From a virus (Duplodnaviria; Heunggongvirae; Uroviricota; Caudoviricetes), in the IMG/VR virus record IMGVR_UViG_2537561934_000015: a DNA stretch of 29,584 bases, one strand, 5' to 3'. Of the stretch, positions 13,435-28,588 are shown one piece after another (within the stretch, counting starts at the first letter, position 1; the number at the start of each line of letters is the position of its first letter). Under the pieces are notes generated by a model, which was given only the letters and a program-made list of their open reading frames with translations, made no database searches and was not told where the DNA came from. Made by a program: the position numbers and the translations under genes.

Positions 13435-15258
13435 ATGAGTACCACAACACGAAAATTTAAAACCGTTATCACCGATACGGGTGCAAAAAAATTAGCTCAG
13501 GCAGCCGCGCCAGATGGTAAGCCTGTCCGCCTGACTCATATGGCCGTGGGCGACGGTGGCGGCACGTTGCCCACACCAGACAGTAAGCAGACCCGTCTGG
13601 TGCATGAGGTGTGGCGACACACTGTTAATCGCGTCATCCTGGACGCAACACATCAGAACCGCATTATTGCGGAGCTGGTTATTCCTCCTGAAACGGGCGG
13701 ATTCTGGATCCGGGAAATTGGTGTATTTGATGAGCACGGCGATTTGATCGCGGTGGGCAATACTGCGGAAAGTTACAAGCCAGCCGTTGCCGAAGGATCC
13801 GGACGTGCACAAACATTTCGCACCATTCTGACCGTATCCAGCACTGCCACCGTGGCGCTTACCGTGGATAACACCATGGTGATGGCCACAGTGGATTACG
13901 TGAATGACAAACTGAAAGAACATGAACAGTCACGACGTCACCCGGACGCCTCGCTGACCGCAAAAGGCTTTGTTCAACTCAGTAGCGCCACTAACAGCAC
14001 GTCTGAAACGCAGGCTGCAACGCCGAAAGCAGTAAAAGCCGCGTATGACCTGGCTAACGCAAAATATACCGCTCAGGACGCCACGACGGCACGAAAAGGG
14101 ATAGTCCAGCTCAGTAGTGCCACCAACAGCACGTCTGAAACGCTGGCCGCGACACCGAAAGCGGTTAAGGTGGTAATGGATGAAACGAACAAGAAAGCGC
14201 CCTTAAACAGCCCGGCGCTGACCGGAACGCCAACAACACCAACTGCGCGACAGGGAACGAATAATACCCAAATCGCAAGCACGGCTTATGTGATGGCCGC
14301 GATTGCCGCACTTGTAGACTCGTCGCCTGACGCACTGAATACGTTGAACGAGTTAGCGGCGGCGCTGGGCAACGACCCGAATTTTGCGACCACCATGACT
14401 AACGCGCTTGCGGGTAAGCAACCGAAAGATGCCACCCTGACGGCGCTGGCCGGGCTTGCTACTGCAGCAGACAGGTTTCCGTATTTTACGGGGAATGATG
14501 TTGCCAGCCTGGCAACCCTGACAAAAGTCGGGCGGGATATTCTTGCAAAATCGACCATTGCCGCCGTTATCGAATACCTCGGTTTACAGGAAACTGTAAA
14601 ATTAGCTTCGGAAGCGTTATCAACATATGGCGGGGTGGTTAACGGTGATGTGATTATCAAGGGCATTCTCTCGTTAATTGGGAATGAATTACTTATTGAA
14701 AAAGATAATGGCTTTTCTGGTATTCACATCAGAAACAAGAGCACGGTTGCAGGGAGTGCAAATGGAGTCGACTTTTCATTTGGCGGTGCGATTATGTCGT
14801 CTCTCATTTGTGGAATAATGGAAAATGGCGCGAACTACATAGACGTTGCATTGTCTCCGGCAGGCAATATTTCTGACCGTCGTCTGCTTGCATTTACTTT
14901 GGATGGAAATATCAGGCAGTTAATTCCCCGGAATGGATGGAGCATTCAGGGATATACAAAAAACAGTGATTTTACCCAGGCGATGGCTGATGCTGGTTGG
15001 GTACGTTTTCCAAATGGCATCATTTTTCAATGGTGTTGGGGGAATACTGATGCCAGTGGCTGGGCACCTGCCCCGTTTCCTGTTGGCTGGCCTGTTCGTT
15101 GCTTTGGTTTGTTAGCCTGTAATGTTGCTGGTGACTCGATAGCAAGTGCAATTGCGGGTGTTAAAAGATTAAATGATCGCGATATGCAGGTCACGTTAAT
15201 GGAAAGGTCTGGGGGTGCTGTTTCTAAACCATTCTTCTGTATTGGTGTGGGGTGTTAA
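13435..15258 (+). CDS. H: Tail fibre protein (P2 gpH-like), current C-terminal variant
   Basis: 607-aa ORF. Has a conserved N-terminal part and tandem fibre repeats (QLSSATNSTSET..AATPKAVK twice). The C-terminal third lies inside the invertible segment. Confidence 0.9.
   Translation: MSTTTRKFKTVITDTGAKKLAQAAAPDGKPVRLTHMAVGDGGGTLPTPDSKQTRLVHEVWRHTVNRVILDATHQNRIIAELVIPPETGGFWIREIGVFDEHGDLIAVGNTAESYKPAVAEGSGRAQTFRTILTVSSTATVALTVDNTMVMATVDYVNDKLKEHEQSRRHPDASLTAKGFVQLSSATNSTSETQAATPKAVKAAYDLANAKYTAQDATTARKGIVQLSSATNSTSETLAATPKAVKVVMDETNKKAPLNSPALTGTPTTPTARQGTNNTQIASTAYVMAAIAALVDSSPDALNTLNELAAALGNDPNFATTMTNALAGKQPKDATLTALAGLATAADRFPYFTGNDVASLATLTKVGRDILAKSTIAAVIEYLGLQETVKLASEALSTYGGVVNGDVIIKGILSLIGNELLIEKDNGFSGIHIRNKSTVAGSANGVDFSFGGAIMSSLICGIMENGANYIDVALSPAGNISDRRLLAFTLDGNIRQLIPRNGWSIQGYTKNSDFTQAMADAGWVRFPNGIIFQWCWGNTDASGWAPAPFPVGWPVRCFGLLACNVAGDSIASAIAGVKRLNDRDMQVTLMERSGGAVSKPFFCIGVGC
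14564..14594. repeat. Left gix-like recombination site (inside H)
   Basis: The reverse complement of 14576-14594 equals 17344-17362 exactly (GTTTCCTGTAAACCGAGGT, 19 bp). Flanks extend to about 31 bp with 3 mismatches. Lies within H codons ...EYLGLQETV.... Confidence 0.85.
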
Positions 15259-15260
15259 TC

Positions 15261-15737
15261 ATGTCCAGTAAAATATTCTATAGTGCCAGGAATAATACGT
15301 TTTTCTTTGAATCCATGAAACCGGACTATGAAAAATCAGGCGCATGGCCTGACGATTTGGTGGCAGTCACAAACGATATGTATGAAGAGTTTACGGGAAG
15401 ACCGCCAGAGGGAAAGAAGAGAGGCAGTGATGAATCTGGTTTCCCCGCATGGATTGATGTATCAGAACCAGCAACAGAGCAGTTAATCGCATTAAAAGAG
15501 CAGAAGAAAAAGGATTTAGCGGGGATTGCGAACACAGAAATTGCCTGGCGGCAGGATGCTGTTGACGCAGGGATGGCGACAGAAGCAGAAATCACTGTGC
15601 TGGCTGAATGGAAAAAATATCGAGTGCTACTTATGCGTATTGATACATCAACCGAGACGGATATTGAGTGGCCCGCTGTTCCAGACGGACAAAGCGGCAA
15701 AGAGAGCAGTGCAGAGGATGTGAAAACGTCGCTATAA
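15261..15737 (+). CDS. G: Tail fibre assembly chaperone (gpG/Tfa-like)
   Basis: 158-aa ORF immediately after H. A similar gene lies convergently at 15864-16304. Confidence 0.75.
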   Translation: MSSKIFYSARNNTFFFESMKPDYEKSGAWPDDLVAVTNDMYEEFTGRPPEGKKRGSDESGFPAWIDVSEPATEQLIALKEQKKKDLAGIANTEIAWRQDAVDAGMATEAEITVLAEWKKYRVLLMRIDTSTETDIEWPAVPDGQSGKESSAEDVKTSL

Positions 15738-15842
15738 TGTCATCACAATTATTATCATTTTTGTTATTTTGTATTTCCTTGCTCTCCGCAGCCATGTGGA
15801 TATGGAAAAGCCTGGATGACCACAAAAGCCTGAGTAAAATTA

Positions 15843-15860
15843 AGGCCCGATAACGGGCCT
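15843..15860. terminator. Bidirectional hairpin between the convergent tail fibre assembly genes
   Basis: AGGCCCG-ATAA-CGGGCCT, flanked by T-rich sequence on both strands. Confidence 0.5.
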
Positions 15861-15863
15861 TTC

Positions 15864-16304
15864 TCATTCTGGTTGTTCGGGGAATGTTACCGGCAGGCTG
15901 GAGGTGTCTGTGGATTCGACTTTCTGCGCATAGAGCATCCACTCGGTTAATTTTTGTTTATTCTCGTCGGAAATGACGCCCAGCTGTAGCTGAGAGTCCC
16001 ACAGCTGGGTTTTATCCCTGACGAGCTGCAGCAGGCTCTGCTTTTCATTTTCCGCTTGTTGCCTTTGCTCCTCCTCGGTATAAGTTCGCTTTACCACTAC
16101 GCCATCTTTGAACATCCATTTACCCGAAATGTCAGCACGGCGATTTGCTGTAATATCAGGTAATTCAACGACGCTTGCGCCTTCCGGATTAATTGCTGAA
16201 ACATCCTTTTCAATACAAATAATAACGCCGTTATGGTCATAGACCATTTTCAACGTATCAGGCCGGAAATTCTTTTGTTCCTCATACCAGTTTTTTCCCA
16301 TCAT
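15864..16304 (-). CDS. Alternative tail fibre assembly chaperone (tfa')
   Basis: 146-aa ORF on the minus strand inside the invertible segment, convergent with tfa. Same size class as tfa and in the Mu U' position; similarity to tfa was not checked. Confidence 0.7.
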
Positions 16305-16400
16305 CTGAATAAAGCCATTTGATGTTAAATTGCTTTGTTAGCTGGTATTGCTCTTTTGTTTTAGGATTGCCAGCAGTAATGTTTTTTAAGTGCATCATAA

Positions 16401-17363
16401 TTAAATACTCCCCGCGTTATACCACGTTCCATTAATGCAATACTGAACTGGCCTTGCCTGTGTTGTATCAATTAATTCATCACGGTTTCCGTTAACTGAA
16501 CCCGTAACGACATAACCTGACCTGTCAGACCAGCCGGGACCATTCCATGTCTGAACAGATGACAGACCGCCCAGACGAATACCTGTAATAAACTTTGAGT
16601 TACATTCCGCTTTGGTATATGCACCAACATCTCCCGCAGAGGGCTTGCGGGTCGTGGTGTAAAACTCTGACCAGTTAGCCTCAAATCCATAACCATCACG
16701 CGCTGAACGATAAAAAATACCGCCATTCCTGTAATTCACGCGGAACTGTACGGCAGGGCAACTCCCCGTATTCATATTGAAGTGGAGGATTAATGCTGTT
16801 GCGCCATTGATATCTGCGTTATAAACCCCGCTATTCCAGTTCCAGCCAACAGCTTTATCATTTGCAACCCTGCTTCCTGTTTGCCCTAAAGCAAATGCAG
16901 GCTGCTGGTTTTTCGTGTTGTAGTCTCGTCGCCAGCCAGGAGCATAAGCATCACCATGATTAATATAGGTGAATTGAGCGTTAGTAATTCCGCCGCCGCT
17001 GGACGTGCTCGGCGTGGTAACGCGTATGGTCATTGCGCCGCGAGTGCCAATAACTTCCACCACAGCACCTGCAAGACAAATATTTCCGCAACCTGTATCT
17101 GTAATGACCTTATTATTTGCATAAGCCCATGAGCCTTTGCACATCCAGTAAGGATGGTTAAATGCCCCCTGACTCTCCAGCCACGAAATGAATTGTGCGG
17201 TTGTCCAGGCCTGACTATCGCCACCAATATTCAGCCCTGCACTATATGCGCGGCAGGCCCCAATATTTTTGGTGAAGGTATCTTTTCCCGGAATATCTGC
17301 GCCGTTCTGGTTTTTTTGTAATGCTCCAGAAGCCTGATTTACCGTTTCCTGTAAACCGAGGTT
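16401..17363 (-). CDS. Alternative tail fibre C-terminal cassette (start-less; expressed after inversion by fusion to the H N-terminal part)
   Basis: The minus-strand frame is open from 17363 (a stop lies just upstream) down to the stop at 16401. It begins [16 protein letters not shown]..., matching the H junction ...EYLGLQETVKLASEALS. No start codon at the 5' end, as expected for an Sv'-type cassette. The six-frame track shows only the internal Met at 17144. Confidence 0.8.
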
Positions 17364-17374
17364 TTAGATAATGG
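17344..17374. repeat. Right gix-like recombination site
   Basis: GTTTCCTGTAAACCGAGGTTTTAGATAA, close to the recalled Mu gix sequence (TTCCTGTAAACCGAGGTTTTGGATAA). Lies about 50 bp upstream of the invertase start. Confidence 0.85.
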
Positions 17375-17425
17375 TCGATTTTGGCACGCATGGCATGATT
17401 GGCGCTTTTAAACAGGAGATCCAGA

Positions 17426-18016
17426 GTGCTGATTGGCTATGTAAGGGTATCAACAAATGACCAGAATACAGACCTGCAACGAAACGCTCTTGTTTGTGCA
17501 GGATGTGAACAAATATTTGAAGATAAATTAAGCGGGACAAAGACAGACCGACCGGGATTAAAACGCGCTTTAAAGCGCCTTCAACAAGGTGACACGCTGG
17601 TTGTCTGGAAACTGGATCGCCTCGGGCGAAGCATGAAACATCTGATTTCTCTCGTCGGGGAACTACGGGAGCGAGGGATTAATTTTCGCAGTCTGACCGA
17701 CAGCATAGATACATCTTCTCCAATGGGGCGTTTTTTCTTCCACGTGATGGGTGCCCTGGCTGAAATGGAACGTGAATTAATTGTAGAGCGTACACTGGCC
17801 GGTCTGGCAGCAGCACGCGCACAAGGACGCACAGGCGGACGTCGCCCGAAGCTGACAAAAGAACAGAATGAGCAAATAGCAAGGCTGATTAAAAACGGGC
17901 ACGACAGAAAACAACTGGCAATAATTTACGGCATTGGTACATCGACGATTTATCGTTACCACCCCGCAGGAGAATCAAGCGGAACAATTGAGAAGAGTAA
18001 ACAAAATAACCGCTAA
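17426..18016 (+). CDS. Serine DNA invertase, Gin/Pin/Cin/Hin family
   Basis: From GTG 17426 (AGGAG 7 nt upstream) the protein reads (M)LIGYVRVSTNDQNTDLQRNAL...VVWKLDRLGRSMKHL..., near-identical to the recalled Gin/Pin N-terminus with the catalytic Ser in VRVST. The six-frame track start at 17399 is upstream of the likely start. Confidence 0.9.
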   Translation: MLIGYVRVSTNDQNTDLQRNALVCAGCEQIFEDKLSGTKTDRPGLKRALKRLQQGDTLVVWKLDRLGRSMKHLISLVGELRERGINFRSLTDSIDTSSPMGRFFFHVMGALAEMERELIVERTLAGLAAARAQGRTGGRRPKLTKEQNEQIARLIKNGHDRKQLAIIYGIGTSTIYRYHPAGESSGTIEKSKQNNR

Positions 18017-23793: not shown

Positions 23794-24903
23794 ATGACCG
23801 ACACCACCATGCAATTGCTCAGTCAGAGCACAGACCCCGTGAAAATGCCGGATTTTGATATTCTCGCGGAGGGGGAAACGCTGTCCGGTCGTGGCAGAGC
23901 GCCTGATGAGTCTGTCACTGACCGACAACCGGGATTTGAAGCGGTACCAGCTCACCATCACGCTGGATGATGCGGATGGTCAGTTGCAGCTACCGCCACG
24001 GGGCGCGCGCCTGACGGTTCTCATTGGCTGGAAAGGAGAACCGCTGACAGAAAAAGGCACTTACATTGTTGATGAAATCGCTCACGAAGGACCGCCGGAC
24101 AGGCTGACGGTTTCAGCCAGAAGCGCAGATTTTCGGGATGAATTTAACGTTAAACGTGAGGTGTCCTGGCATGATGTGACCGTTGAGCGCGTGGTATCCG
24201 CCATCGCTCATCGGTATGGTCTGAAACCGCAAATCAGCGAAATGCTGATGGATATCGAAATCGACCACGCCGACCAGACCGAAGAAAGCGACATGTCCTT
24301 CCTTACGCGCATGGCGGAAATGCTGGGCGCAATCACTACGGTAAAAAGCGGTAATCTGTTATTCATCATGCCAGGTGGTGGCGTGAACGCACTGGGCCAG
24401 CCGTTGCCATCGTTCGCCATCACACGCAGCAGCGGCGATCGCCATCAGTTCCGCATTGCTGACCGCGAAGCGTATACGGGGGTACGCGCTTACTGGCTTG
24501 ATCTTAATTACGGGAAAAGAAAAAAGTCAGCGTGAAACGCCGCAAACCGCCAAAACCCAAAAAGGAGAAAAGCAGCAGCCGTGAAGGTGATTATATGGAA
24601 GGCGCAGAAGGCAATGTGTTTGTGTTACGCAAGACTTATCAGAACGAGCAGGCAGCAAGACGCGCAGCGGCGGCAAAATGGCAGCAGCTACAACGCGGAG
24701 CCGCATCATTCTCCATCACGCTGGCGCGTGGACACGCAGAACTCTATCCCGAAATGCATGGCACGGTGAAAGGCTTCAAAAGTGACATCGACAATCAGGA
24801 CTGGATTATTGCAAAAGCTGAGCACACCATTGATAACAGCGGCTTTACCACGCAGCTTGAGCTTGAGGCAAAAATCCCGGAATGGATAGCAGAAACAGAG
24901 TGA
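23794..24903 (+). pseudogene. D: Tail/baseplate hub gene D (P2 gpD-like), split over three frame segments
   Basis: Frame 1 from ATG 23794 (ribosome-binding site AGGGAGGGA) reads MTDTTMQLLSQSTDPVKMPDFDILAEGETLSGR and then goes out of frame. Frame 2 (open 23843-24535) carries the central part VAERLMSLSLTDNRD...YWLDLNYGKRKK. Frame 1 again (open 24508-24903) carries the C-terminus ...EGNVFVLRKTYQ...WQQLQRGAASFS...GFKSDIDNQDWII...GFTTQLELE. The frame changes lie near 23880-23895 and 24510-24530. Confidence 0.75.
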
Positions 24904-25023: not shown

Positions 25024-26046
25024 TTAATACGCATTTAATTTAAATTTGTATTTGCCTTCTATGTAATGGATAAATTCAATTATGCTTTTTTCTATCGCAT
25101 CTAATATATGAATATATCCATCCCGATTTAAGGTCCTATCCAACTCAAAGTGATGAACTATCCCATGTCTATATTGTATGATTTCAGAAATTCGATTCTC
25201 AAGAAAATCAACTGATTTTCCAATTCTTTTTTTCTTATAAAGAATCGCTCTCACATCTATATCCAGCCACTCTTTATATGCTTTGTTTAGGTGGGTTAAG
25301 TTTTGAAAAGTGTAATTTCTTGCAATAACACTTTCTATTGAAATATTTCCTTTCTCTATCTCAAGCAGAATATCAAAATCAACTTTTTGCTTATACGATG
25401 TTCTTTTTGCTATTGCGAAAGGATCGTACTTTATAAGTATTTGAAAAGCTCTAGAGAAAAAGTATTCAAACATAGCAACCGCAAAAGGTACTAATCCATT
25501 ATATATAACTCTACTGGGATCCATACATTGCATGTAATCAAAGTATTCGGATAAGCCGCCATCTTCCGGTAGGTTTAATTTAATAGAAGGTTCAGGTAAG
25601 GCATGTTTAACAGCGGAAATCTCATGATGGACATGATTAAATATTGAAGAAATGCCACGACTGATCGGACTACTAGAATCCTTCCATAGAGGAGCGTACC
25701 TATTTTTCCCATAATCACCTATAAGTGTTCCACCAAAAAGACTCCTTGCGCCTTTTAGAACATCATTAAGCATTTTTACATCATGCCAACTAGCGCTATA
25801 TAAATTACGCACATGCAATGCCCATTTATTACCAGATATGTGTAATTCGTCATTTGAAACAGGATATATATCAGCCGAAACTCCATCTGTAGATTTGAAG
25901 TCCGTATCATCAAACCAAGAGTAATTCAACGTTCCTTGGGGCCATTCCCACAAATGTTTACACCTTTTAAAACCTAAATTTTCAAGGTAATTTTTAAGTT
26001 CGTTTCTAGTTGCTTTTTTAGGGTACAGCGTTATATCTCTTCCCAT
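25024..26046 (-). CDS. Hypothetical 340-aa protein, AT-rich cargo gene inserted between D and ogr; C-terminal HEPN-like R-x4-H motif
   Basis: Long ORF with AGGTGA ribosome-binding site, visibly AT-rich against GC-rich structural genes, and on the opposite strand to its neighbours. C-terminal region ...ENRISEIIQYRHGIVHHFELD... contains R-x4-H. Confidence 0.7.
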   Translation of the reverse strand: MGRDITLYPKKATRNELKNYLENLGFKRCKHLWEWPQGTLNYSWFDDTDFKSTDGVSADIYPVSNDELHISGNKWALHVRNLYSASWHDVKMLNDVLKGARSLFGGTLIGDYGKNRYAPLWKDSSSPISRGISSIFNHVHHEISAVKHALPEPSIKLNLPEDGGLSEYFDYMQCMDPSRVIYNGLVPFAVAMFEYFFSRAFQILIKYDPFAIAKRTSYKQKVDFDILLEIEKGNISIESVIARNYTFQNLTHLNKAYKEWLDIDVRAILYKKKRIGKSVDFLENRISEIIQYRHGIVHHFELDRTLNRDGYIHILDAIEKSIIEFIHYIEGKYKFKLNAY

Positions 26047-26237: not shown

Positions 26238-26498
26238 ATGTTCCGTTGTCCACTTTGTGGCGCATCTGCCCGTATCCGCACTAGTCGTCCGGAAAATGAT
26301 TCAAACACTGTGCGGCAAAAGTATTACCAATGTAACAACCTAGAATGCGGCGTATGCTTCTCAACACTGGAAGCTTTCCATAAATTCACATCGAAACACG
26401 CCTCCGGCGCTCACTCTTCAGAAGGTATCCCGTGGCATGAACTGCCAGCTTCACACAAAGGAAACAATCAGATGAGTTTGCCCTTACCTCAAAATTAA
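26238..26498 (+). CDS. ogr: Ogr/Delta-type zinc-finger late transcription activator
   Basis: MFRCPLCGASARIRTSR...YYQCNNLECGVCF matches recalled P2 Ogr (MFHCPLC...ARTSR...YHQCQNVNCSATF). Ribosome-binding site AAGGGAGG. Confidence 0.85.
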   Translation: MFRCPLCGASARIRTSRPENDSNTVRQKYYQCNNLECGVCFSTLEAFHKFTSKHASGAHSSEGIPWHELPASHKGNNQMSLPLPQN

Positions 26499-26588
26499 CA
26501 GGCAGAATTGCCGGAGTAACAAAAAAGAGATAGATTACGCGCGGGTGCCTTTCGGCTGATGGTCGGAGGGAATACCTGAAGGCCAGAT

Positions 26589-26822
26589 GTGGAAAGGCCC
26601 CGGAAAACATTTCTGTTTAACCGAGGCCCTAACCGCATTACCTTGACAAGTGAAAGGTTAGCGCCTCTCCGGAAAAGGAGCAAGTGCTATGTCGCAAAAA
26701 TCGCTTACGGCTATCACGTTCTGCGTGACGGTAATCCTCATCATCTGGATGTTGCACGGTTCGCTGTGCGAAATACGGATGAGTTTCTGGGGAGCGGAGT
26801 TTGCGGCGTTCTTACAGTGTAA
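26589..26822 (+). CDS. mok-like overlapping leader ORF of the hok-type locus
   Basis: 77-aa ORF in a different frame, starting upstream of the hok-like ORF and overlapping almost all of it, as in hok/mok loci. Confidence 0.4.
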   Translation: MERPRKTFLFNRGPNRITLTSERLAPLRKRSKCYVAKIAYGYHVLRDGNPHHLDVARFAVRNTDEFLGSGVCGVLTV

Positions 26823-26829
26823 GCAGTAA
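26689..26829 (+). CDS. Hok/Gef-family type I toxin (46 aa)
   Basis: ATG 26689 with AAAGGAG at 26674-26680. Product MSQKSLTAITFCVTVILIIWMLHGSLCEIRMSFWGAEFAAFLQCKQ has the Hok TM helix plus SLCEIR and AAF motifs (compare Hok ...[24 protein letters not shown]). Confidence 0.7.
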   Translation: MSQKSLTAITFCVTVILIIWMLHGSLCEIRMSFWGAEFAAFLQCKQ

Positions 26830-26838
26830 GGAAACCGC

Positions 26839-26860
26839 GACGGGGGAGTAATCCCCCGTC
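26839..26860 (+). terminator. 3' stem-loop after the hok-like ORF
   Basis: GACGGGGGA-GTAA-TCCCCCGTC, 10 nt after the stop, with no clear T-run. Confidence 0.4.
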
Positions 26861-27090
26861 AATCGGTTGCCAGGGTAAGGTCGATAAGGCACCCTATCTC
26901 ACGGCTCTAAATGCAAAAATTCCATGAAACTGTGGGATTTTTGCATCACTACTGATACAGATCTGCCCTTCTATATGTCTCACTCTATACCAGCTAATCA
27001 ATTGACACTTATCAATAAAAAAAAATCTGATAAAATCAAAATGTTTTGTAACAAATATCAACTCGTATTGATCCAAAGGAGGCGGATTAC

Positions 27091-27423
27091 ATGGCATTAA
27101 TCAAATGTCCTGAATGCCAGAAAGAGGTGAGCGATTCAGCATTGTATTGCCCTGCTTGCGGTAAACAAATAAAAAAACTTAAGCGTTCATTTTTTGGAAA
27201 GCTCATTAAGTGGATATTTATATTATTTAATATTTTTATGATCTATACGCTTTTAGTTGGACTGGGAGGCACTAGTGAAATAATAAATAATGCTACATCC
27301 GATGCCGAAAAAGCCGGTGCAGTTATTGGTACAGGCTTAGGTTTAATTACCATTGGAAGTTTATGGGTTATTGGCGATATCATTATCGGAATTTTAGTAT
27401 TTCTTACTAAACCAAAAGGATAA
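27091..27423 (+). CDS. Zinc-ribbon membrane protein (110 aa)
   Basis: CPEC...CPAC zinc ribbon at the N-terminus, then two hydrophobic helices. Ribosome-binding site AGGAGG. AT-rich. Confidence 0.6.
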   Translation: MALIKCPECQKEVSDSALYCPACGKQIKKLKRSFFGKLIKWIFILFNIFMIYTLLVGLGGTSEIINNATSDAEKAGAVIGTGLGLITIGSLWVIGDIIIGILVFLTKPKG

Positions 27424-27427
27424 CAAA

Positions 27428-28321
27428 ATGAAAAATATAATTTTTTCTATAGGTGCATCATTTATATCAATTAGTGTACTGCCTGTTCACGCAGCAACTG
27501 AACATAATAACTTCAATGCAGTACTCCAGTGCCGAGCAATAGAAAATAATAAAGACAGACTTTCTTGTTACGATAAGTCAATACAACCGACTCGAACGAA
27601 AGTTGCTGAAAAATTCGAAAGCAGAGATCAATGCCCTGATGAGAAAGATGATGACAGACGTTTATCTTGTTATGATCGTTTTTTTTCTCCAACATTTACT
27701 CCATCTGTAAACTCAAAATCTAAAACGGAAAAGCCAGTAACAACAGAGGCTCAGCAACCAAATCTTTCTGAGATATCTAAATGCCGAGCAGAAAATGATA
27801 AAGAAGCCAGACTAAACTGCTACGATAAACTATTCCCACAGGATAAAGCTGTTCAAGCTGAATCAAAATTAGAGAAAGCCACAGATGTAGGAAAATGGCA
27901 CACATCCATTACTACATCGCCAATTGATGATTCGAAAAATGTAATTTTATCGTTAGAAAGTGATGATTATATCAGAACTCCATTTGGAGAAGCGGTTACT
28001 CCCACTCTGTTTATAGCTTGCCGAGAAAAGAAAACCGAAGTATTTCTTAGTTGGGATGTATATTTAGGCCTTGAACAAACCAGCATGCTTTATCGTCTTG
28101 ATAAACAGAAAGCAGTTGAGCGAAACTGGCTAGTATCTACAGATACAAAGGCTGTTTTTTATAAAGGTAATGACATTGATTTCATCCGAAAACTAGCCAA
28201 CTCAAACAAAATGTATACAAAAATAACTCCTTATAATGAGAGCCCTGTAAGTGCAACTTTCAATTTAAACGGCCTGTCAAACGCGCTAAAACCACTTCAA
28301 GCTGCTTGTAACTGGAAATAG
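27428..28321 (+). CDS. Secreted repeat protein (297 aa) with signal peptide and three RL(S/N)CYD motifs
   Basis: N-terminal signal peptide MKNIIFSIGASFISISVLPVHA. Repeats DRLSCYDK, RRLSCYDR and ARLNCYDK, followed by a C-terminal domain. Starts 4 nt after the zinc-ribbon gene, so probably co-transcribed. Confidence 0.6.
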   Translation: MKNIIFSIGASFISISVLPVHAATEHNNFNAVLQCRAIENNKDRLSCYDKSIQPTRTKVAEKFESRDQCPDEKDDDRRLSCYDRFFSPTFTPSVNSKSKTEKPVTTEAQQPNLSEISKCRAENDKEARLNCYDKLFPQDKAVQAESKLEKATDVGKWHTSITTSPIDDSKNVILSLESDDYIRTPFGEAVTPTLFIACREKKTEVFLSWDVYLGLEQTSMLYRLDKQKAVERNWLVSTDTKAVFYKGNDIDFIRKLANSNKMYTKITPYNESPVSATFNLNGLSNALKPLQAACNWK

Positions 28322-28330
28322 CATAAATCA

Positions 28331-28392
28331 TGTGGCTTAGCCACAATCACAGATAACACAAAGCCCGTGAAAACGGGCTTTGTGTTATCTGT
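28331..28392. repeat. Two adjacent perfect palindromes/hairpins
   Basis: TGTGGCT-T-AGCCACA at 28331-28345. ACAGATAACACAAAGCCCG-TGAAAA-CGGGCTTTGTGTTATCTGT at 28349-28392 (19-bp arms). No T-run follows. Confidence 0.6.
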
Positions 28393-28588
28393 AACTCGAA
28401 AATGTGGTCACTACGTGGACACGTGCTGATATAAATCCTTTTATATCAATAAATTAAATCATCATTTTTTTCATCAACAAGGATTTTCACGTTTGTGTTA
28501 CCTGTATGAGACGAGAGTTAACCGGACAAGTGTGCCATAATCTCGCGGCCAGGCATACTTGCGAAGATTTCAGGTATAAGGATACGTA

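Follow-up and report, generated by a model that had tools for sequence, protein, structure and literature searches.

Small phage proteins of the inner membrane and/or the periplasm, such as T4 Imm and Sp, P1 Sim and HK97 gp15, block a second phage after it has adsorbed. VasI, or TagO, is an accessory protein of some type VI secretion system (T6SS) clusters (PF11319, TIGR03360). In Vibrio cholerae, VasI is dispensable for the secretion of Hcp and VgrG and contributes to T6SS-dependent killing (amoebae; PMC3166118), and a 2026 review lists the function of TagO as unknown (PMC13584744), so the name brings no mechanism. SDIC4B, a periplasmic protein of the two-gene anti-phage system Serratia defence island candidate 4 (SDIC4) with a reported VasI-like fold, is reported to give 10-200-fold phage protection alone (bioRxiv 10.1101/2024.01.28.577318). 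In the Citrobacter phage phiSM, reported as a fully functional temperate phage, a gene has been listed as 'T6SS VasI family protein, virulence', by annotation alone (PMC6456863). In this study, we analyzed two adjacent genes, here called A and B, from a 29,584-nucleotide stretch of viral DNA (IMG/VR record IMGVR_UViG_2537561934_000015, Caudoviricetes; the whole stretch is hereafter the window), of which B encodes a protein of the VasI superfamily. It is firmly supported that the pair is a phage-borne accessory ('moron') operon located between ogr and attP of P2-like temperate phages. Its function is tentatively read as protection of the lysogen at the level of the envelope, the likeliest form being superinfection exclusion, and we put the probability of this reading at roughly 0.45.

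Genes A and B are co-oriented, are separated by a gap of 4 nt and have an AGGAGG 6 nt 5' of the ATG of gene A. Their guanine-plus-cytosine (GC) content is 0.342 for gene A and 0.364 for gene B, compared with 0.536 over window positions 1-24900 and 0.528 over the final gene, flk (NCBIfam, 505 bits). The features of the two genes are given below in window positions.

27091-27423, plus strand: gene A, 110-residue inner-membrane protein (phrog_6586, 146 bits)
27428-28321, plus strand: gene B, 297-residue secreted (periplasmic) protein of the VasI superfamily (Pfam, phrog_1848)
27428-27493, plus strand: signal peptide of B, residues 1-22, predicted cleavage VHA/A, read from the sequence
27530-27574, plus strand: Cys hairpin repeat 1 of B, CRAIENNKDRLSCYD, residues 35-49, helix-turn-helix in the AlphaFold2 model
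27632-27676, plus strand: Cys hairpin repeat 2 of B, CPDEKDDDRRLSCYD, residues 69-83, not in one-repeat homologues
27782-27826, plus strand: Cys hairpin repeat 3 of B, CRAENDKEARLNCYD, residues 119-133, the copy common to all free homologues
27890-28318, plus strand: C-terminal beta domain of B, residues 155-297, IalB/VasI fold with conserved C198 and C294

A first-pass annotation, made from the letters of the window, had described this place as an AT-rich module of a zinc-ribbon membrane protein and a secreted protein with a signal peptide and three Cys motifs, neither with an obvious known function. The two linked genes agree with the coordinates of the open reading frames (ORFs) and their GC of 34-36%, and the signal peptide and the three motifs are both read from the sequence of B. 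The zinc ribbon and two helices of A were likewise found, but its distantly DrpB-like membrane domain had been overlooked. It is correct that the function is not established, although B is a clear member of Pfam VasI (89.6 bits) and carries the RefSeq name 'TagO'.

The window comprises the right part of a P2-like (Xuanwuvirus, P88-type) prophage, whose landmarks are listed below.

2.2-5.0 kb: terminase and portal
21.9-24.9 kb: sheath, tube and gene D
26238-26498: ogr gene
about 28468-28488, no strand: attR core (TTTTCATCAACAAGGATTTT), overlap of phage and host homology in the pdxB-flk intergenic region

In prophage-free Escherichia coli genomes homology to the window starts at 28468, in the pdxB-flk spacer, and in phage genomes it runs to 28484-28491. 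These two limits place the attR core at about 28468-28488 and therefore place the pair inside the prophage, where it ends about 150 bp before the attR core and has ogr and hok on its other side. A scan of the window for tRNAs found none, and a tRNA integration site was ruled out, the att site being the pdxB-flk intergenic region. P88_4B11, a free phage genome, has the pair (gp36/gp37) with ogr-mokW-gp33-gp34-gp35 on one side and the integrase gene on the other, and phiSM carries it at 97% nucleotide identity. The position between ogr/hok and the integrase gene, the attR core downstream and a functional phage as carrier indicate phage cargo. The pair was thus found inside the phage genome, between conserved genes and attP, at a site where content varies among relatives (RES insertion, TM2 variant, A alone and B alone). 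The first-pass annotation had taken it for an island beside a prophage end, and this placement is corrected by the attR mapping and by the order of genes in P88_4B11.

A total of 237 of 5426 complete E. coli genomes (about 4%) carried the module over at least 80% of the query. With its atypical GC, this distribution bears out the proposal that the module is a horizontally acquired accessory one; a conserved core operon of established function, which the annotation had named as the finding that would speak against it, was looked for and is not what these counts describe. In one genome, E. coli B7A (NZ_CP035812.1, 2678586-2681102), the module matched in two pieces that an annotated insertion sequence, IS1A, separates; this strain thus has an interrupted pair. 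Further carriers of the pair are P2-like phages and prophages of Klebsiella, Enterobacter, Citrobacter, Salmonella and related genera. Homologues of A or B were collected from 153 IMG/VR loci (80 found with B and 73 found with A, the two sets sharing contigs), and ogr and sheath genes of P2 type were present in 134 of them. In the other genera the pair stands at the ogr-attR end of the prophage wherever P2-type genes were detected, and the host integration sites differ.

The interval between ogr and the att site holds further cargo. A hok/sok-type module (26543-26829, plus strand) lies between ogr and the pair, with a 46-residue Hok/MokW-like ORF at 26689-26829 (phrog_251, 83 bits), an Rfam sok match at 26543-26702 (48 bits, under the gathering score of 59) and, 3' of the module, a GC-rich palindrome at 26838-26861. 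Relative to the window, two additional genes separate hok from the pair in P88_4B11 (locus L001, 3860-4686), namely gp33 (80 residues) and gp34; the latter has a RES domain (39 bits) and with gp33 is probably a RES-Xre-type toxin-antitoxin pair. Since these two genes are extra in P88_4B11, the interval is a variable cargo site, and the adjoining hok/sok module, the RES gene and the TM2 variant described below mark it as a cargo hotspot.

Protein B matched Pfam VasI (PF11319) in three stretches (cut-off 26.5, E 2.6e-25). Its N-terminal segment, MKNIIFSIGASFISISVLPVHA/A, is signal-peptide-like and has no lipobox Cys, and a hydrophobic N-terminal segment is kept in its homologues. Exactly three C-x11-C-Y-D motifs are present, and in an alignment of 44 sequences C119, R128, L129, C131, D133 and C198 were invariant and C294 was nearly so (at least 90%). 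This set of Cys residues points to two disulfide bonds, as would suit a protein of the periplasm. B therefore shows the arrangement of the VasI family, an N-terminal Cys hairpin and, after it, a beta domain in which two Cys are conserved. Its homologues formed 92 clusters, of which 29, 19 and 43 had three, two and one hairpins, respectively, and 91 of the 92 free secreted forms had the hairpin in one to three copies. A sequence search of solved structures gave a sole match, Tubby, at chance level (E 0.02), and a BFVD fold search with the B model returned uncharacterised phage proteins only. The fold of the beta domain was seen in proteins of phages RB16 (Escherichia), KP15 (Klebsiella), 65.2 (Aeromonas) and VH7D (Vibrio), with E values from 7.5e-7 to 2e-4; we take these four to be T4-like lytic phages.

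The T6SS label of B was evaluated with the T6SS VasI equivalog TIGR03360 (cut-off 124.2), on which B scored 75.9 bits and seven of its relatives 34-78 bits, compared with 257.4 bits for the positive control ECs_0222, the TagO of the E. coli Sakai T6SS cluster (clpV-tssA), which is 26% identical to B. Around B no T6SS cluster was found, its neighbours in the window being ogr, hok, attR and flk. The loci of the phage-type clade that were examined were P2-like prophages or mobile/defence regions and none was a T6SS cluster, and no T6SS family occurred among the top 25 neighbour families of 24 non-P2 genomic relatives. T6SS membership of B was rejected on the equivalog score, set against the positive control, and on the neighbourhood. 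As judged by these scores, the RefSeq name 'TagO' appears misleading, and the assignment of B to a phage/mobile-element-associated branch of the VasI superfamily, rather than to the T6SS equivalog, is firmly supported.

An extra phage-borne VasI might nevertheless tune the T6SS of the host or shield the lysogen from T6SS attack. A role of this kind would agree with the score of B above the Pfam VasI threshold, with its 26% identity to the Sakai protein, with the contribution of V. cholerae VasI to T6SS-dependent killing (PMC3166118) and with the T6SS-related virulence cargo listed by the authors of phiSM (PMC6456863). We regard it as very unlikely, given that B falls under the equivalog cut-off on which a true T6SS protein reaches 257 bits, that T6SS clusters are absent from the examined loci of the phage-type clade, that the T6SS copy is without a zinc-ribbon partner and that the review cited above gives TagO no function (PMC13584744).

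A role in interaction with the animal host, in which an exported IalB-like B would promote adhesion or invasion, was also considered. The Pfam IalB model gave B 20.6 bits, a weak match under its threshold of 22.1, and the carriers of the pair include human and animal gut isolates and, through the phiSM copy, the mouse gut pathogen C. rodentium. B has a Sec signal only, with no outer-membrane or surface-display features, its relatives are frequent among marine and environmental bacteria and the phages of these, and its conserved inner-membrane partner points to a role in the periplasm; together these observations make a virulence factor a most improbable explanation.

Protein A begins with a C4 zinc ribbon (CPEC...CPAC, residues 4-26, nt 27100-27168; Pfam Zn_Ribbon_1, 31 bits, cut-off 25), which is followed by two predicted transmembrane (TM) helices at about residues 38-56 and 85-103, and it carries a juxtamembrane RSxxGKxxxWxF motif and a C-terminal LTKPK. 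In its AlphaFold2 model (predicted local distance difference test, pLDDT, 78) helices span residues 34-66 and 71-105. The NCBIfam DrpB model (NF038392) matched A at 22.1 bits over model positions 2-84 of 86, under the curated cut-off of 50, and hhalign against E. coli DrpB gave E 9e-4 over 78 columns with a probability of 22.5%. When 1.84 billion representatives were searched with the A-family profile, 334 clusters had E <= 1e-10, many of them proteins of about 98 residues that are the membrane domain alone. When ten such relatives without zinc ribbon were compared with the DrpB model, five matched weakly (18-24 bits) and five did not match. These weak or absent scores indicate that the membrane domain of A forms a family of its own, distantly DrpB-like and not DrpB. 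On these profile comparisons, it is firmly supported that A is a membrane protein with a zinc ribbon and a domain distantly like that of DrpB.

This likeness raises the possibility that A is a DrpB-like modulator of division, as a member of the divisome, or of Rcs (capsule) and Psp signalling, as DrpB is when overproduced, and B its periplasmic modulator, in which case any phage resistance or effect on fitness would be indirect, for example through the capsule. DrpB belongs to the septal ring and, in multicopy, activates Rcs and Psp; the membrane domain of A aligns with its model end to end, and the motifs RSxxGKxxxWxF and TRP(K/R) are common to both. DrpB T89, a residue reported as critical for the RcsF-independent activation of Rcs by DrpB (PMC11709261), has as its counterpart in the alignment T106, an invariant position of the A family. 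VasI was also found fused to SPOR, a septal peptidoglycan-binding module: a 335-residue protein of Methyloceanibacter (L036, 7881-8888) has a complete VasI domain with hairpin and a C-terminal SPOR domain (39 bits), and this SPOR domain, taken with the DrpB-like domain of A, may speak for a connection with the division septum. We nevertheless consider the modulator unlikely. All scores are under the cut-off of 50, with 22 for A, 19 and 24 for two A homologues and the values given above for the short relatives. Relatives or fusions also occur in genomes of Micavibrio, Rhodospirillales and Desulfobulbaceae and in a Brucella phage; the Rcs system is, to our knowledge, confined to Enterobacterales. 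Finally, the modulator leaves unexplained the phage-repressor and defence-gene neighbours of the relatives, which are described below.

A-like membrane domains are also the N-terminal anchor of proteins of 400-540 residues with other C-termini (P0203, P0265, P0302, P0169-P0171), of which one has a tRNA_anti-like OB fold and two have Cys-rich LprI-like C-termini. The idea of a lysozyme inhibitor, suggested by the LprI-like fusions, was dropped, the only Pfam LprI match being 17.7 bits against a threshold of 22.

The association of the two genes is widespread. In IMG/VR, A was directly upstream in 67 of the 80 loci found with B, and B directly downstream in 60 of the 73 found with A; contigs in which A precedes B came from Klebsiella, Raoultella, Enterobacter, Brenneria, Salmonella and Izhakiella. 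Within loci B always diverges more than A (40-63% compared with 66-75% identity to the window proteins), which fits a specificity-determining partner. Natural fusions of the two were also identified: P0162-P0166 (Micavibrio, Rhodospirillales and relatives) consist of an A-like two-helix domain, three helices and VasI; P0286 of an A-like anchor and VasI; P0173 of a zinc ribbon, an A-type juxtamembrane motif, one helix and VasI; and L027 (Desulfobulbaceae) of two TM helices, a zinc ribbon, one TM helix and VasI. The number of helices from zinc ribbon to VasI is odd in every fusion, an arrangement that places the ribbon on the cytoplasmic side of the membrane and VasI on the periplasmic side. The Cys hairpin is lacking in all A-VasI fusions, as against its presence in 91 of 92 free forms, and this pattern suggests that the hairpins may stand in for the covalent tether of the fusions. 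The co-occurrence of A and B and the hairpin-less fusions argue for a membrane-periplasm complex, and the proposal that the two would act together across the inner membrane is well supported by gene order and fusion architecture.

Other arrangements were observed as well. In E. coli (L003-L005, 8001-9126) a 250-residue B with two hairpins lies at a tamB-ytfP integration site, and beside it, replacing A, is a convergent gene for a 98-residue protein with a zinc ribbon and Pfam TM2. Izhakiella (L017, 8713-9009) has a frameshifted A, B and a zinc-ribbon-TM2 protein together. Where A occurs without B, other small secreted Cys proteins follow it instead, of 144 and 74 residues in L192 (6001-7017) and, in L200 (2864-3625), of 102 residues with an internal repeat; in one P2-like prophage (L188, 6001-6336) A is solitary between ogr and attR.

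Further clues to function came from the neighbourhoods of relatives. Neighbours of the 24 non-P2 genomic relatives of B include a type I methyltransferase, Old/GajA/AriA-like ATPases, a type IV restriction endonuclease, a GmrSD enzyme and a Pycsar-type TIR effector, the last of these directly upstream of one relative; a C5 methylase, a RecD2-like helicase and a TerB_N/TerB_C protein were likewise seen beside the closest relatives of B. A VasI-like gene is directly 3' of an annotated repressor gene, and co-oriented with it, in Brucella phage BiPBO1 (gp68 then gp67) and in Klebsiella phage ST11-VIM1phi8.1. In genomic loci of Zobellella and Marinobacter it directly follows a co-oriented gene with helix-turn-helix (HTH) and S24 domains (CI/LexA-type), and these genes are read as putative prophage repressors from their domains. 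A homologue of A without B is directly 3' of a 231-residue ORF that was judged by eye to be HTH + S24 CI-type-like. Genes that are expressed in the lysogen, for example rexAB of lambda, are classically found downstream of a repressor.

In the reading of superinfection exclusion, A would be a small inner-membrane protein with a two-helix membrane domain and a zinc ribbon that faces the cytoplasm. B would be exported by Sec to the periplasm, where one to three disulfide-stapled helical hairpins would precede the beta domain of VasI/IalB fold. The two are envisaged as working in a single membrane-periplasm complex: A would form its membrane part, and B would be kept on the outer face of the inner membrane. 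The complex would be made in the lysogen and would hinder an incoming phage as it crosses the periplasm or the inner membrane.

Several observations weigh against this reading. The defence-gene neighbours are a raw list to which no background rate was compared, and PADLOC models match neither A nor B. Expression in the lysogen is taken from position, and the promoter-like site described below is statistically not distinctive. SDIC4B has no detectable similarity to B, so this precedent is an analogy only, and the DrpB link points equally to roles in division or stress signalling. Solitary B homologues also have the hairpin, which is thus not an A-specific docking element, and a minority of phages have A but no B, or B but no A, so that the A-B complex is not obligatory.

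Abortive infection is another way in which the pair could protect: B or the zinc ribbon of A would sense the phage, A would disrupt the inner membrane, and the infected lysogen would die before the phage replicates. A small membrane protein with a partner on a prophage, next to hok/sok and, in P88_4B11, to a RES toxin gene, would suit such a system, as would the other defence genes near relatives and the solitary A of some phages. The fusion of A-like anchors to varied periplasmic domains (chromosomal proteins of 300-540 residues) fits a scaffold or anchor over a toxin, and PADLOC detected no similarity to known membrane effectors; we therefore hold abortive infection to be quite improbable. 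Neither the pair nor three further AT-rich ORFs from the window had a PADLOC match, and membership in a known defence system was rejected on this result.

In a broader reading, the pair and its fusions might form a widespread, unrecognised class of envelope guards, in which a VasI/IalB domain on a DrpB-like anchor would block injection devices in the periplasm. In the fusions the tether would be covalent, and where the two genes are separate the Cys hairpins might supply it. Injectors of contractile and non-contractile type (phage tails, possibly T6SS) would be detected or blocked by the complex, which the zinc ribbon would couple to the cytoplasm, and the VasI/TagO of T6SS clusters would be a domesticated member. 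We offer this wider proposal as a distinctly doubtful one.

Two candidate signals flank the operon.

27009-27036, plus strand: promoter-like site, TTATCA (27009-27014), 16-nt spacer and TG-n-TAAAAT extended -10 (27028-27036), a candidate from a consensus scan
28349-28392, plus strand: perfect 20-bp stem-loop 3' of gene B (dG -43.4 kcal/mol, z = -11.2)

The TGaTAAAAT that the first-pass annotation had proposed as the promoter of the module is present, but promoter-like sites in the AT-rich stretch (3 seen compared with 5.7 expected from shuffles) are not more frequent than by shuffling, so the site upstream of gene A is a plausible candidate only. That annotation had both genes right but overlooked the perfect hairpin. 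The stem is preserved in P88_4B11 by compensatory substitutions and is without a U-tract, and a smaller hairpin (28331-28345) lies between it and gene B; the stem-loop is probably the 3' end or a stabiliser of the operon transcript. An Rfam scan found no match inside genes A and B, and the 28349-28392 hairpin drew spurious matches to miRNA models only.

Other parts of the window may bear on the state and the cargo of the prophage. Between gene D and ogr is a low-GC (0.336) ORF of 340 residues (25024-26046, minus strand) with a weak C-terminal match to Pfam HEPN_RiboL-PSP (22.5 bits, cut-off 28.4) and no match in PADLOC, PHROG or NCBIfam; with it the prophage may carry a second gene of cargo or defence type. 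The homologue of P2 gene D (23794-24903, plus strand) was mapped by tblastn against an intact D of 369 residues and lies in three pieces (23794-23943, 23873-24580 and 24517-24900) in frames 1/2/1, which implies two frameshifts; the prophage copy may be defective, or the frameshifts may be sequence errors. A second low-GC stretch (0.41-0.49) at 14500-18000, after the tail-fibre region, includes ORFs at 15864-16304 (minus), 16401-17144 (minus) and 17399-18016 (plus) for which PADLOC gave no match, and by position it recalls Z/fun, a cargo hotspot in P2-like phages.

It is already known that both genes are annotated and that B is phage cargo. In the searchable literature we found no description of the pairing with A, of the fusions, of the pattern of hairpin versus tether, of the DrpB-like relation or of the separation from T6SS VasI. 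The T6SS name of B in RefSeq and the virulence listing in at least one paper are unsupported by these data, and the natural fusions predict both the topology and the partnership of A and B. If exclusion or defence is the true function, the ogr-att end would be a third cargo hotspot of P2-like phages worth mining; if A is instead DrpB-like and not a defence protein, a phage would be modulating host division or Rcs signalling. Knowing what the pair does would in addition offer a first mechanistic entry to the VasI/IalB fold, the part of which in T6SS has been a question since 2011.

The pair can finally be compared with the described systems. IalB (invasion-associated locus B, PDB 3dtd) is matched by the sequence of B below threshold, and its own mechanism is undefined. 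With T4 Imm/Sp, P1 Sim and HK97 gp15 the likeness is one of functional analogy, no homology being detected or claimed. SDIC4 shares with the pair two small genes, one of them for a signal-peptide protein called VasI-like, and a location in mobile/defence regions of Enterobacterales and not in T6SS clusters. The sequences of SDIC4A and SDIC4B were recovered from the plasmid table of the preprint; SDIC4B has no Pfam match and compares with B at blastp E 56 and an hhalign probability of 0.1%, and SDIC4A is a secreted protein of 150 residues with a signal peptide and no zinc ribbon, unlike A. SDIC4 is moreover associated with BrxR and not with P2-like phages, and membership of the pair in SDIC4 was rejected, neither of its proteins being similar to A or B. 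DrpB (YedR) resembles A in the two-helix topology that is predicted for A and in a membrane domain of similar size (about 80 of the 100 residues of DrpB), and A differs from it by an added cytoplasmic zinc ribbon, by being phage-borne, by its pairing with a periplasmic protein and by its own family of at least 334 clusters. VasI/TagO has the signal peptide, the C-x11-C-Y-D hairpin and the beta domain with two conserved Cys that are found in B, whereas B is borne by phages and mobile elements, has its hairpin in triplicate and is accompanied by a dedicated zinc-ribbon membrane partner.

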